From the sequence record PZ179885.1: 40,778 bases of DNA; one strand, written 5' to 3'. Below the pieces are notes generated by a model. That model did not search any database. It had not been told where the DNA came from and was given only the letters and a program-made list of their open reading frames with translations. This DNA is from a phage. Shown piece after piece: positions 3,085 through 8,102 of the stretch. Numbering within the stretch: position 1 is the first letter of the stretch; each line of letters starts with the position of its first letter. A program made the position numbers and the translations under genes.

Positions 3085-3114
3085 TTGACAAGATGTACCG
3101 ACTTAAAGTAGTAT
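3085..3114 (+). promoter_or_regulatory. host sigma70 early promoter (A3-like)
   Basis: TTGACA-18 bp-TAGTAT followed by GTACCACATCAACACGAAACAACGGTGA, closely resembling the T7 A3 promoter and its initial transcribed region as I recall them. Confidence 0.65.
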
Positions 3115-3231: not shown

Positions 3232-3290
3232 GCGACTAACTACAGGGTCTTTGAGTCTACATCTGAAGGCCCTGACTGATAGTCACTAAC
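3232..3290 (+). promoter_or_regulatory. conserved early-region element, putative RNase III site (R0.3-like)
   Basis: Shares about 50 bp with the element at 3892-3943, including the exact 20-mer CCTGACTGATAGTCACTAAC (3271-3290); sits just upstream of gene 0.3. Confidence 0.4.
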
Positions 3291-3308: not shown

Positions 3309-3812
3309 ATGGAACGTAACGCTAACGCATACTATGAGCTGCTGGCTGCAACCGTTGAGGCATTTATCGAGCGTATTCAGTACTACCACCTGACTAAAGA
3401 TGATGACTACAGCGATGCGCTGCATGAGGCCGTAGACGGTCAGGTTCCGCACTATTACCACGAGATTTTTACGGTGATGGCTGCTGATGGTATAGACCAC
3501 GAGTTCGAAGACTCTGGGCTGATGCCTGAAACCAAGGACGTAACGCGTATCCTACAAGCTCGCATCTATGAGGCACTTTATAACGACGTGTCTAATAGCT
3601 TGGATGTAGTCTGGTTTGAGGATGAAGAGGCAGACGAAGAGGATGAATATTGGGTAGTTGACGCTAAAACAGGCGCAATAATTGTGCAAGCTGTAGCTCT
3701 TGAGGTCGCTACTGCATGTGCCAAGCTCAACTATACGATAGGTCGCCACCTGAAGGTGGAAGACATCAATGATAACGTAGTGTTCGACCCTGCGGCTGAG
3801 GACTGCGAGTGA
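3309..3812 (+). CDS. 0.3: Ocr-like DNA-mimic anti-restriction protein (gene 0.3) with C-terminal extension
   Basis: Residues 1-115 align with T7 Ocr ([43 protein letters not shown] versus T7 [43 protein letters not shown]); acidic tail, then about 50 extra residues. Confidence 0.85.
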
Positions 3813-3891
3813 TAGGCGGATATATGGCTAACGTGAAGGATTCTCACATAGAGGCCATGCTTAAGTCAGCGCTTAAAGATTTAGCTTACGA

Positions 3892-3943
3892 GTGATTAAC
3901 TACAGGTCGTTAACTCATAGCGGCCTGACTGATAGTCACTAAC
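3892..3943 (+). promoter_or_regulatory. conserved early-region element, putative RNase III site (R0.5-like)
   Basis: Second copy of the element at 3232-3290, with the exact 20-mer at 3924-3943. Confidence 0.4.
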
Positions 3944-3958
3944 TATAGGATAAACAAG

Positions 3959-4483
3959 ATGAAACTGATAGGCAAGGGCGCGTTCACTAAGTGCTACCTG
4001 AAGGACTGCGGGAAGCGTGTAATTCTGGTATCTTCAGACCCAATCAAGGAGTGTATGGCGTGGGGATGGTTCCCTGAGTCTCCACTGTTCCCTGAAGTCA
4101 AAATGATTGAGGTAGGCACGTATGAGATGAACTACATGCCACCAACACGAGGTATCAAGGCGCATTTAGATGACGACCAGTGGCAACTCTATCAGGTGTT
4201 GCGAGACTGCTTCTCACGGTCCCCTGTATTCTCTAGACCTGCTGAACTGTATCACAAGTGGTACGAGATATTCCAAGCTGCACACGACAGGTCTGAGACT
4301 GAGACTGTGCGGGAAGGTCTGATGGATGTGCTGATGGCTCTGGACGCTTGCGCTAACTTCGGGTCTGATATTCAGTTTGAGATAAGCCCACGAAATGTAC
4401 GGGCTGTGAATGGTAAGCTGATACTGGTTGACTGTTTCTTCCTTGTGTCCAAGCTGCAAGAGGTGAGGTCATCAAGATGGTAA
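3959..4483 (+). CDS. 0.7: short gene 0.7-like protein kinase (kinase domain only)
   Basis: IGKGAFTKCY...KRVILV resembles T7 gp0.7 LGNGHFSAAY...NRVIKV, and NGKLILVDCFF resembles T7 NGDVPYITDPVSF; 174 aa against roughly 359 aa in T7. Confidence 0.5.
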   Translation: MKLIGKGAFTKCYLKDCGKRVILVSSDPIKECMAWGWFPESPLFPEVKMIEVGTYEMNYMPPTRGIKAHLDDDQWQLYQVLRDCFSRSPVFSRPAELYHKWYEIFQAAHDRSETETVREGLMDVLMALDACANFGSDIQFEISPRNVRAVNGKLILVDCFFLVSKLQEVRSSRW

Positions 4484-4524
4484 CTTATGGTATCTGCCAG
4501 CACCACGTCACCAACGCCCGGCTT

Positions 4525-4626
4525 ATGGTCAAGACCGGGCAGTTAAACCACGATGCGACTATGCGCTACCTGAAAGCGGTCTACGAGGGCCGCAAGCGTA
4601 TACACGACAGTTTACACGCTGAGTGA
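4525..4626 (+). CDS. small early ORF (33 aa)
   Basis: MVKTGQLNHDATMRYLKAVYEGRKRIHDSLHAE; part of a chain of coupled small ORFs; weak support. Confidence 0.2.
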   Translation: MVKTGQLNHDATMRYLKAVYEGRKRIHDSLHAE

Positions 4627-4692
4627 CAGACGAGAGGTCATCGACTGATAGGTGGCCTCAAAGATTATCACTTACATTGATAGGGGTTAACT

Positions 4693-4797
4693 ATGAGCAC
4701 TGCAATCATCTGGACTATCTCAGGCTTCGTAGCGTGGGGAATGTTTACTCTAGTCTGCAAACTACCGGTCCTTACTCAACTGTTATGGGGCTTATGA
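4693..4797 (+). CDS. small hydrophobic peptide (34 aa)
   Basis: MSTAIIWTISGFVAWGMFTLVCKLPVLTQLLWGL; AGGGG upstream; its stop overlaps the next start (ATGA). Confidence 0.3.
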   Translation: MSTAIIWTISGFVAWGMFTLVCKLPVLTQLLWGL

Positions 4798-4997
4798 CTA
4801 TGAGTATCGCACTATTGATAGCCATAGGCTATGGACTTATCGCCTACGTGCTGGTGAGAGACATCAACAAAGCGCGTAAAGTCTACAAATTAAACTATGT
4901 ACGTCTGGGTCGCTGGACTGTACGTCAACCTAACGGACGATTCATGTGCAACTTAGCGAACGTCTGGGATATAGCAACTATTGGGAGCAAACTGTAA
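4794..4997 (+). CDS. small membrane protein (67 aa)
   Basis: MTMSIALLIAIGYGLIAYVLVRD... has an N-terminal transmembrane-like helix; coupled to neighbours through ATGA and TAATG overlaps. Confidence 0.4.
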   Translation: MTMSIALLIAIGYGLIAYVLVRDINKARKVYKLNYVRLGRWTVRQPNGRFMCNLANVWDIATIGSKL

Positions 4998-5420: not shown

Positions 5421-8102
5421 ATGAGCGTCATCTCTATTGACAAACACGACTTCTCTGATGTGTCGAACGCCATTGAGCCGTTTAACCTGCTGGCTGACCA
5501 CTACGGGCAAGACCTTGCAGTCAAACAGCTTCAGCTTGAGCATGAGGCATACACAGAAGGCGAGCGACGTTTCATCAAGAACCTTGAGCGCCAGACTGAG
5601 CGCGGGGAATTGGCAGACAATCAGGTCGCCAAGCCTTTGATGCAGACTCTGGTCCCTAAGATTGCGCAAGCCGTCAGGGAGTGGCACGAAGGCCTAGACG
5701 GGAAGCTGTCAACCTCGCGTCCTAGCGTAGCGTTCACCATGTTGAGCACTGAAGAGAAGGCCGTAAAGGACCGCTCTATGCGCATCTCTTGCGAGTCTGC
5801 TGCGGTCATCATACTGAAGGTCATCCTCTCCAAGCTGGTCAAGCCTGAAGGGATACCGATTACACCGATGGCATCCGCGATAGGCCGCACACTTGAGGAC
5901 GAAATCCGCTTCGGTCGCATCCGTGACAAAGAGAAGGAGCACTTCAAGAAGGCGATAGCTGAGAACCTGAACAAGCGAGCTGGGGCATCCTACAAGAAAG
6001 CCTACATGCAAGCGGTCGAGGCGTCCATGCTGGAGCAAGGCCAACTGGAAGATGCATGGGGGACTTGGAGTCCTACAGAGGCTGTCCACGTTGGCATCAA
6101 GATGCTCGAGATTGTCATCCAGTCAACACAACTGGTCGAGCTTAAGCGGTACGGTGCTGGTAATGCAGCGGCTGACGTAGAGATGGTCCACCTGTCAGAC
6201 TTCTGGGTCAAGAAGATGGCACAACGAGGATTCAGCCTTGCGGGTATCGCTCCAGTCTACCAGCCTTGCGTCGTTCCACCTAAGCAGTGGACTGGTGTTG
6301 TAGGTGGTGGGTACTGGGCCAAAGGTCGCAGACCATTACCACTGATTCGCTTAGGGTCTAAGTCTGCGGTGGCACGTTACGAAGACGTGTACATGCCTGA
6401 AGTCTATGACGCTGTGAACATCATTCAGAATACACCTTGGAAAGTGAACAAGAAGGTGCTGGACGTGGTGAACATGGTCGAGAAGCTGAACAACACGCCT
6501 ATTGACGACATCCCTCAGATGGAACCACTGAAGCCTGAGGACTATGCAGGTGAGACTGAGGAGGAACTCAAGGCATGGAAGAAGGCTGCTGCTGGTATCT
6601 ATCGACGCGAGAAGGCCCGACAGTCGCGCAGATTGTCACTGAGCTTTATCGTTAACCAAGCGAACAAGTTCTCTCAGTTCAAGGCCATCTGGTTCCCGTA
6701 CAACATGGATTGGCGAGGGCGTGTCTACGCTGTCCCGATGTTCAACCCTCAGGGTAACGACATGCAGAAGGGCCTCCTGACTCTGGCAGTCGGCAAGCCT
6801 ATTGGTGCTGACGGTTTCAAATGGCTGAAGGTCCACGGTGCAAACTGTGCGGGTGTCGATAAAGTCACCTTCGAGGAGCGTATCAAGTGGGTGGAAGACA
6901 ACCACGAAAACATCATGGCTGCTGCTAAGGCACCGATGGATAGTATTGAGTGGTGGGGCAAGTTAGACTCTCCGTTCTGTTTCCTCGCGTTCTGCTTCGA
7001 GTATGCTGGCGTAATGCACCACGGCCTGTCTTACTCCTGCTCGCTGCCGATAGCGTTCGATGGGTCCTGCTCTGGTATTCAGCACTTCAGTGCGATGCTT
7101 CGTGACCACATCGGTGGACATGCAGTAAACCTGACGCCTTCCGGTAAGGTCCAAGACATCTACCGCATCGTGTCTGACCGCATTGAGGAGGAGCTTAAAG
7201 TCCTGCTGATTAACGGTACTGACAACGAGATGGTCACTCACGAGGATAAGAAAACTGGTGAGATTACCGAACGTATCAAGCTGGGGACACGAGAGCTGGC
7301 CCGTCAGTGGCTGCAATTCGGTATGTCTCGCTCGGTCACTAAGCGCTCGGTCATGACTCTGGCCTACGGGTCGAAAGAGTATGGGTTCGCCGACCAAGTG
7401 TTCGAAGACACCGTGATGCCAGCGATTGACTCAGGGTCTGGCGCTATGTTCACTGAACCAAGCCAAGCGTCTCGCTTCATGGCAAAGATGATTTGGGAAG
7501 CTGTGAGTGTGACAGTAGTTGCTGCGGTTGACGCGATGAAGTGGCTTCAAGGCGCTGCCAAGTTGCTGGCTGCTGAAGTGAAGGACAAGAAGACTGGTGA
7601 AATCCTGAAGCCATGCCTTCCGGTACACTGGGTCACACCTGATGGGTTCCCGGTCTGGCAGGAATACCGCAAGAAGGATACCACTCGTCTGAACCTGATG
7701 TTCTTAGGGTCATTCAATCTTCAGCCTACCGTCAACAAAGGTACGAAGAAAGAGCTGGACAAGCACAAGCAGGAGTCAGGCATTAGCCCTAACTTCGTCC
7801 ACTCACAAGATGGTAGCCACCTGCGGAAGACTGTAGTCCACACTCACCGAAAGTATGGCGTGATGTCATTCGCAGTGATTCACGATAGCTTCGGGACCAT
7901 CCCGGCTGACGCTGAGTATCTGTTCCGTGGCGTCCGTGAGACGATGGTAGAGACATACCGCGATAACGATGTGCTGCTTGACTTCTACGAGCAGTTTGAA
8001 TACCAGCTTCATGAAAGTCAGCGCGACAAGTTGCCTGAGCTTCCGAAGAAAGGTAAACTGAATATCGAAGACATCTTGTCTTCAGACTTTGCATTCGCTT
8101 AA
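5421..8102 (+). CDS. 1: single-subunit DNA-directed RNA polymerase (T7 gp1-like)
   Basis: 893 aa; long collinear identity with T7/T3 RNAP, including FPYNMDWRGRVYAVPMFNPQGNDM, SPFCFLAFCFEYAG, RSVTKRSVMTLAYGSKE, HDSFGT and the C-terminal SDFAFA. Confidence 0.99.
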   Translation: MSVISIDKHDFSDVSNAIEPFNLLADHYGQDLAVKQLQLEHEAYTEGERRFIKNLERQTERGELADNQVAKPLMQTLVPKIAQAVREWHEGLDGKLSTSRPSVAFTMLSTEEKAVKDRSMRISCESAAVIILKVILSKLVKPEGIPITPMASAIGRTLEDEIRFGRIRDKEKEHFKKAIAENLNKRAGASYKKAYMQAVEASMLEQGQLEDAWGTWSPTEAVHVGIKMLEIVIQSTQLVELKRYGAGNAAADVEMVHLSDFWVKKMAQRGFSLAGIAPVYQPCVVPPKQWTGVVGGGYWAKGRRPLPLIRLGSKSAVARYEDVYMPEVYDAVNIIQNTPWKVNKKVLDVVNMVEKLNNTPIDDIPQMEPLKPEDYAGETEEELKAWKKAAAGIYRREKARQSRRLSLSFIVNQANKFSQFKAIWFPYNMDWRGRVYAVPMFNPQGNDMQKGLLTLAVGKPIGADGFKWLKVHGANCAGVDKVTFEERIKWVEDNHENIMAAAKAPMDSIEWWGKLDSPFCFLAFCFEYAGVMHHGLSYSCSLPIAFDGSCSGIQHFSAMLRDHIGGHAVNLTPSGKVQDIYRIVSDRIEEELKVLLINGTDNEMVTHEDKKTGEITERIKLGTRELARQWLQFGMSRSVTKRSVMTLAYGSKEYGFADQVFEDTVMPAIDSGSGAMFTEPSQASRFMAKMIWEAVSVTVVAAVDAMKWLQGAAKLLAAEVKDKKTGEILKPCLPVHWVTPDGFPVWQEYRKKDTTRLNLMFLGSFNLQPTVNKGTKKELDKHKQESGISPNFVHSQDGSHLRKTVVHTHRKYGVMSFAVIHDSFGTIPADAEYLFRGVRETMVETYRDNDVLLDFYEQFEYQLHESQRDKLPELPKKGKLNIEDILSSDFAFA

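Follow-up and report, generated by a model that had tools for sequence, protein, structure and literature searches.

A predicted minimal kinase fold with a non-canonical active site in a phage protein family remotely related to T7 gp0.7

The phage DNA analysed here (record PZ179885.1; 40,778 nucleotides, referred to in full as the window) is a circularly permuted genome from the K1F group of T7-like phages, genus Kayfunavirus. T7 orthologues run along it from the terminase (1–1767) through the RNA polymerase (RNAP, 5421–8102) and on to the tail fibre, and the section 3300–5400 matches 242 phage records at 93–96% identity by megablast, mostly Kayfunavirus or related coliphages and Salmonella phages. 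Our subject is a small kinase-like gene of the early region, which lies between an ocr-like gene (3309–3812) and the phage RNAP gene (gene 1) and whose product has the N-terminus MKLIGKGAFTKCY. A preliminary description of the sequence had taken it for a minimal kinase of the T7 gene 0.7 type (gp0.7, hereafter T7K) that lacks the host-shutoff half and may have an altered active site. The gene and the relevant segments of its product are listed below; conservation was counted in a 343-sequence alignment whose identity to the window protein is 31–97% (median 42%).

3959..4483, + strand: the kinase-like gene, complete, encoding a 174-residue stand-alone protein of family phrog_11084 [from the open reading frame (ORF) list, the PHROG match, the AlphaFold2 (AF2) model and dN/dS]
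3968..3988, + strand: Gly-rich nucleotide-binding loop I-G-K-G-A-F-T (residues 4–10), joining predicted strands β1 and β2
4016..4033, + strand: predicted strand β3, R-V-I-L-V-S (residues 20–25, from AF2), without a conserved ATP-binding lysine
4046..4051, + strand: Lys30-Glu31 at the start of helix C (position 30 is K in 340/343 and R in 3/343; E31 in 321/343)
4376..4396, + strand: catalytic-loop equivalent F-E-I-S-P-R-N (residues 140–146), gap-free against T7 F194-D-M-H-S-G-N200
4424..4441, + strand: DFG-like segment L-V-D-C-F-F (residues 156–161), opposite T7 I-T-D213-P, with D158 as predicted Mg2+ ligand

The reading frame is genuine and intact, and purifying selection on it is strong. Comparison with the orthologue of phage YZ1 gives 20 synonymous and 5 non-synonymous differences and a ratio of non-synonymous to synonymous rates (dN/dS) of 0.064. 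An assembly frameshift near 4480 had been suspected; there is none, the protein matching PHROG 11084 ('unknown function'), and no other PHROG, over its full length (E 8.9e-95, residues 1–174 against positions 2–170 of 170). By tblastn the gene is present in 85 phage records, with at least 80% of the protein aligned in 84 of them. Among 5.8 billion proteins searched there were 155 matches (nearly all of 156–206 residues among the 120 listed), and an exhaustive profile search found 751 clusters at 50% identity, 453 of them below 1e-10. Judged by the best 150 of the 751 clusters, these are stand-alone proteins with a median length of 172 residues, mostly 155–200, and exceptions may occur in the tail of the family beyond those 150. 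Members are found in Molineuxvirinae phages of Klebsiella, in Seuratvirus and Otagovirus, and in phages of Cellulophaga, Aeromonas and Ralstonia. In five other phages that were inspected the gene sits among small genes annotated as hypothetical, upstream of RNAP genes in two, and no obvious recurring partner was seen among its annotated neighbours. The family is almost confined to phages: 185,579 species genomes yielded only two loci, one in a metagenome-assembled genome (MAG) and one in a single-amplified genome (SAG). These two nominally bacterial loci belong to a Coriobacteriia MAG and a Sulfurimonas SAG (40% and 34% identity, respectively); at 43.9 kb the Coriobacteriia contig is as long as an Autographiviridae genome, and it may be phage DNA that was binned with the MAG. 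Among the Enterobacter phage records OP272491–OP272493 and PQ039555, several show the orthologue aligned in two to three pieces, with one annotated product of 126 residues, which reflects either sequencing frameshifts or real pseudogenization in that lineage. Database entries call members 'hypothetical protein', save for a few entries from Dickeya phages labelled 'serine/threonine kinase', and we found no paper on the family.

The AF2 model of the protein, built on a 47-sequence alignment, has a predicted local distance difference test score (pLDDT) of 96.2 and a predicted template-modelling score (pTM) of 0.89. Its N-lobe has five strands and a short helix C [β1 (2–6), β2 (10–14), β3 (20–25), helix C (28–34), β4 (48–51), β5 (54–58)]. 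The small helical C-lobe consists of helices 66–69, 72–86, 94–111 and 115–131, a strand (138–140) leading into the catalytic loop (141–146), strands 147–150 and 152–156, the DFG-like D158, a short strand and one closing helix (163–172). There is neither an activation segment nor the F–I helices. The model has the bilobal arrangement of the protein-kinase-like (PKL) superfamily, with a Gly-rich loop, a metal-binding Asn and a DFG-type Asp, and agrees with the kinase fold expected in the preliminary description. Foldseek against the PDB places the aminoglycoside phosphotransferase APH(2''), choline kinases, RIO2 and CDK2 first (top E 3e-4, TM-scores ~0.4). Among the predicted viral structures of BFVD the best match is a phrog_11084 member, followed by small uncharacterized phage proteins and T7K-type kinases [A0A7L7SMK1, E 1.8e-5, and a 'protein kinase' of Klebsiella phage NahiliMali, E 7.4e-5]. 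The first of these two has been counted as a T7K homologue with non-canonical domain architecture (PMC13645617). No kinase match was obtained from Pfam for the protein or any of the 47 alignment members (E up to 10), from NCBIfam or PADLOC for the protein, or from a PDB sequence search with single sequence or profile, where nothing rose above chance; these negative searches do not weigh against the fold evidence. According to the model, the 174-residue protein is the bare core of the protein-kinase fold.

BLASTP against T7 gp0.7 is insignificant (best E 1.7). When the 47-sequence family alignment is compared as a profile with ten diverse gp0.7 homologues (T7, Berlin, Erwinia, Dagda, IMM-002, Cd1, Cota, Kompost-1 and two metagenomic sequences), hhalign aligns residues 5–165 with gp0.7 residues 68–221 over 142 columns (E 1.2e-5, probability 81%); a local rerun gave E 4.3e-5 in local and 7.1e-7 in global mode. 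The Gly-rich loop, FEISPRN/FDMHSGN and LVD/ITD are aligned without gaps, in keeping with the earlier alignment of the Gly-rich loop and a catalytic-loop-like segment to gp0.7. On these profile alignments the kinship with T7 gp0.7 is real but remote, being visible by profile–profile comparison and not by BLASTP. The C-terminal shutoff (SO)/DNA-binding domain, a typical though not universal feature of gp0.7, is absent as had been stated, the protein ending 16 residues past D158; the shutoff half is not all that is missing, as the ~67-residue N-terminal extension of gp0.7 is absent as well. What remains corresponds to the entire T7K kinase core (gp0.7 68–221); that core likewise stops one helix past the DFG-like Asp, and the protein is no more minimal than that core.

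The Gly-rich loop region (residues 4–13) is strongly conserved (G5 in 329/343, G7 in 342/342, F9 in 335/343) and lies opposite T7 L73-G-N-G-H-F-S. G7 corresponds to G76 of T7K, of which the G76F mutant is described as catalytically dead (PMC13645617). In β3, V21 and S/T25 are conserved. The preliminary description had set VILV here against VIKV of T7, so that a candidate ATP-binding lysine may be missing; in that register position 23 is L, I or V in 341/343 sequences and never K. In the hhalign register T7 K93 instead falls opposite R20 (and D100 opposite D27), and position 20 is variable (K/R/T/E/Q/S). The conserved β3 (VAIK) lysine of the PKL superfamily is thus lacking under either register, although which residue faces K93 differs between them. 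Secondary structure favours the K93–L23 register, with β3 at 20–25 and the following helix at 28–34 here versus 91–95 and 98–111 in an AF2 model of T7K. That model was built from 27 close homologues, has an overall pLDDT of 66 (30–50 across residues 96–146 and 187–220) and was used solely for the positions of β3 and helix C. In it K93 is the third residue of β3 and D100 the third of helix C, mirroring L23 and K30, and K30 is the sole invariant N-lobe lysine that we found. This suggests that the lysine has moved to a position of helix C where T7K has an acidic residue, with the T7K model being of low confidence and hhalign preferring the other register. At position 27 (nucleotides 4037–4039), immediately ahead of helix C, the 343 homologues have either Asp (195) or Cys (148) and no other residue.

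In the C-lobe, the catalytic-loop equivalent is close to invariant (E141 in 343/343, S143 in 330, P144 in 332, R145 in 334, N146 in 341/342). N146 corresponds to T7K N200, and the Asp of the HRD/HGD motif is replaced by Glu141 at the position of T7K D195, a change beyond what the preliminary description had observed and one that bears out its suspicion of an altered active site. D158 is present in 342/342 sequences and F160 in 337/343, and N146 and D158 are 12 residues apart versus 13 in T7K. Of the residues invariant in the ten gp0.7 homologues (K93, D195-x-H197-x-x-N200 and T-D213-P(-V)), the equivalents of the Asn and of Asp213 alone are retained; the corresponding positions here read L23 or R20, E141-I-S143-P-R-N146 and V-D158-C-F. 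Further residues whose conservation is specific to the family (Y55, K67, Y78, N133, D137 and R145) may make up a site for the substrate. No deep branches with a catalytic Asp or K23 came up in a search seeded with the protein of Pseudomonas phage PN09, which is 35% identical.

An unrelated α/β protein with a chance or purely structural likeness to kinases and no nucleotide chemistry would fit the lack of Pfam, NCBIfam and PADLOC matches, of PDB sequence hits above chance and of a significant BLASTP match to gp0.7. It would not fit the position of the invariant residues, which fall exactly on the Gly-rich loop, the catalytic loop (x-x-x-x-N) and the DFG-type Asp with canonical spacing, and we consider such a coincidence highly improbable.

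Neither is the protein a shortened gp0.7, as the preliminary description had it; it belongs to a separate family of its own of ~170 residues. It matches none of the gp0.7 families phrog_2828, 15752 and 18305, all three of which are matched by T7 gp0.7. The two are distinct because Dickeya phage Dagda carries both, a 177-residue phrog_11084 member (862–1395) and, starting 320 bp downstream, a 351-residue gp0.7 homologue (1715–2770), both ahead of the RNAP gene in one early operon. A gp0.7 gene cut short, by a frameshift in the assembly or by a deletion of recent date, would explain why the gene occupies roughly the place of gene 0.7, between 0.3 and gene 1, and why its product is about half as long as gp0.7. 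Against such a remnant stand the full-length match to a 170-position family profile, the hundreds of homologues of 155–200 residues in unrelated phage groups, the conservation in YZ1 of the stop codon and of the ORF overlapping it, the absence from the whole window of a second gp0.7-like sequence by tblastn, the full gp0.7 alongside in Dagda and the dN/dS of 0.064. These refute a remnant, to which we assign next to no probability, and both a truncation artefact and a chance resemblance are effectively excluded.

The early region of Kayfunavirus is a mosaic, in which the window has ocr and the kinase-like gene, YZ1 the kinase-like gene and no ocr, and LM33_P1 ocr without the kinase-like gene. 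Escherichia phage IMM-002, also a Kayfunavirus, encodes at 1725–2459 a 244-residue T7K-type kinase that aligns with gp0.7 residues 20–218 only and has no shutoff region; its 0.3 gene is annotated as a SAM-dependent methyltransferase.

Comparison with known systems places the protein nearest to T7K. Both are encoded by an early gene before the RNAP gene, and both have a GxGxF loop, a short connection from β3 to helix C and an F-(D/E)-x-x-x-x-N loop with a metal-binding Asp 12–13 residues later, then a single helix and no activation segment; their remote homology spans E 1e-5 to 7e-7 in hhalign and ~1e-5 to 1e-4 in Foldseek. They differ in that K93 is invariant in T7K and no β3 Lys is conserved here, in that Asp195, His197 and D-P-V of T7K become Glu, Ser and D-C/V-F, and in that the invariant Lys30-Glu31 stands against a D100-S-G-A-A segment in T7K. 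The type III effectors OspG and NleH also have very small kinase domains (PDB chains of 160–169 residues) without activation loop or GHI subdomain. They keep the canonical β3 Lys and catalytic Asp, have no detectable sequence relationship to the phage protein and are delivered into eukaryotic cells; OspG requires E2~ubiquitin to become active. RIO and Bud32 are likewise compact PKL domains that lack the activation loop and act largely as ATPases. Their catalytic loop, D-L-S-x-x-N, resembles E-I-S-P-R-N in placing a Ser two residues after the base; unlike the phage protein they retain the β3 Lys and the Asp base, carry extra N-terminal elements and are cellular ribosome or tRNA-modification factors. 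The WNK ('with no lysine') kinases offer an analogy only: they have no β3 lysine and use one from elsewhere in the N-lobe instead, in β2 of the Gly-rich loop rather than in helix C as proposed here, and they are full-size eukaryotic enzymes whose Asp base is normal. Aminoglycoside and choline kinases share the PKL fold and head the Foldseek list for the PDB, and differ by their ~300 residues, substrate-binding helical subdomain and canonical Lys and Asp, with TM ~0.4.

On balance we favour a stand-alone, minimal protein-kinase-like enzyme, non-canonical but active (kinase or ATPase), that would serve early host takeover. The product is probably made early, its gene lying between the ocr-like and RNAP genes and downstream of a sigma-70-like promoter. 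ATP-Mg2+ would most likely be bound by the Gly-rich loop, Asn146 and Asp158, with Lys30 of helix C contacting the phosphates in place of the absent β3 lysine and Glu141 serving as catalytic base instead of the usual Asp. The phosphate would be passed to host, perhaps also phage, proteins, to help in taking over the host or countering its defences, and this role would differ from that of gp0.7/T7K; expressed early and acting on host proteins, the protein kinase or ATPase would have low specificity. T7K offers a precedent, having the same truncated architecture and being a hyper-promiscuous Ser/Thr/Tyr kinase with broad anti-defence activity (PMC13645617). Following the same study, we looked in the early proteins for a depletion of Ser, Thr and Tyr as a kinase footprint; there was no consistent difference from the T7 orthologues in a comparison that has no power, the fractions being nearly equal in most pairs (e.g. 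RNAP, 0.132 versus 0.123).

Several points weigh against an active protein kinase. Of the three canonical catalytic residues, two are not found where they usually stand, even if the replacements, K30 and E141, are invariant, and an Asp-to-Glu change at the catalytic base usually cripples canonical kinases. That K30 and E141 lie in the pocket is predicted from secondary structure and alignment, the hhalign probability is only 69–85%, and with small-molecule kinases [APH(2''), choline kinase] at the top of the Foldseek PDB list a protein substrate is no more than a candidate. The co-occurrence in Dagda means that the function is not simply redundant with that of T7K.

The preliminary description had offered a pseudokinase or a kinase with different residue usage, and the second fits better. 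A pseudokinase or nucleotide-binding scaffold would keep the pocket, perhaps with ATP or another nucleotide bound, without phosphotransfer and block or re-target a host protein or sequester a nucleotide. The operational definition of a pseudokinase combines the loss of one or more of the VAIK-Lys, HRD-Asp and DFG-Asp with the absence of catalysis. As to the motifs, the protein has no conserved β3 Lys and no catalytic-loop Asp; it also lacks an activation segment and substrate-binding helices, and in Dagda it coexists with an active-type T7K homologue. Yet E141, N146, D158 and K30, which mere binding could dispense with, are invariant over 343 sequences, Glu is chemically able to act as a base, and T7K likewise lacks an activation segment and is highly active (PMC13645617). 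The nucleotide and metal ligands, the invariant replacements and the dN/dS of 0.064 argue for an active, rewired enzyme and make a degraded pseudokinase unlikely; we give a scaffold of this kind roughly one chance in five. Somewhat less probable still is a small-molecule phosphotransferase of the aminoglycoside/choline-kinase type, whose target would be a metabolite, a nucleotide-derived signal or a cell-envelope precursor. For it, polar and basic residues that the family conserves apart from the ATP motifs (K67, Y78, N133, D137, R145) could form a small-ligand site; against it, T7K-type protein kinases are closest by profile and among the closest in the viral fold search, the TM-score to APH and choline kinases is ~0.4, and the protein has no large substrate-binding C-terminal helical subdomain (174 versus ~300 residues).

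A broader proposal, which extends the active enzyme to the whole family, is put forward tentatively and with less confidence: phrog_11084 would be an unrecognized class of active minimal protein kinases of ~160–175 residues, among the smallest stand-alone kinase-fold proteins, with a Glu base, the ATP-phosphate lysine on helix C (possibly through a K93/D100 swap) and early use in diverse phages against host proteins or defences, independently of T7K and sometimes alongside it. In Dagda, where a phrog_11084 member and a T7K homologue occur together, nature offers a setting in which a difference between their roles could be tested.

The recent study that showed T7K to be hyper-promiscuous and to disarm many defence systems of bacteria searched for its homologues with hidden Markov models (HMMs) of PHROG 2828 (PMC13645617). 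Such a search would probably miss the phrog_11084 family, because the kinase-like protein has no phrog_2828 match here. If the family is active, phage kinase-like early proteins would be far more widespread than the T7K census suggests, reaching Kayfunavirus, Molineuxvirinae, Aarhusvirus, Seuratvirus, Otagovirus and phages of Cellulophaga, Aeromonas and Ralstonia. With Glu at the base position throughout the family and no β3 lysine, this variant of the minimal T7K-like fold is new with respect to the literature found, and would, if active, be a natural experiment on the minimum of the kinase fold that catalysis requires. Kayfunavirus phages are in therapeutic use, and the kinase-like gene, as an early accessory function, may influence their host range among strains with defence systems.

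Around the gene, four further features were noted.

3085–3114: sigma-70-like promoter, upstream of the kinase-like gene
3891..3940, + strand: stable, interrupted RNA hairpin, intergenic, just upstream of the kinase-like gene (minimum free energy −23.5 kcal/mol, z-score −3.28)
3947..3950, + strand: Shine–Dalgarno-like AGGA, 8 nucleotides before the ATG (read from the sequence)
4477..4626, + strand: 49-residue ORF (phrog_5058, function unannotated); its ATG and the stop codon of the kinase-like gene overlap in ATGGTAA

The arms of the hairpin carry TAACTA(C/T)AGG, a motif also present before the ocr gene (copies at 3233–3246 and 3893–3906), and by analogy with the sites between T7 early genes the hairpin may be an RNase III-type processing site. 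The upstream sequence CACTAACTATAGG was considered as a phage-RNAP promoter and rejected: it has one exact copy and the others are degenerate, so that there is no repeated promoter consensus, and the region is that of the hairpin. The kinase-like gene and the 49-residue ORF also form a pair in YZ1 (778–1302 and 1296–1445), which suggests that the ORF is co-inherited with the gene within Kayfunavirus as a two-gene cassette; the ORFs at its position in Dagda and VLCpiA2a have, by eye, no evident similarity to it.

The ocr-like DNA-mimic gene (3309–3812, + strand) encodes 167 residues versus 117 in T7. The Pfam ocr domain (E 1.4e-29) covers only residues 8–94 and PHROG 2568 residues 1–140; beyond the Pfam domain there are an acidic linker and an additional C-terminal segment of ~60 residues, function unannotated. 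Downstream of the 49-residue ORF, a GTG-started ORF of 124 residues (4623–4997, + strand) matches phrog_36394 with residues 1–27 and, with residues 55–123, the entire 70-residue phrog_2385, a family that has a hydrophobic and probably membrane-spanning segment; the real gene inside 4623–4997 probably starts at an internal Met near 4785.
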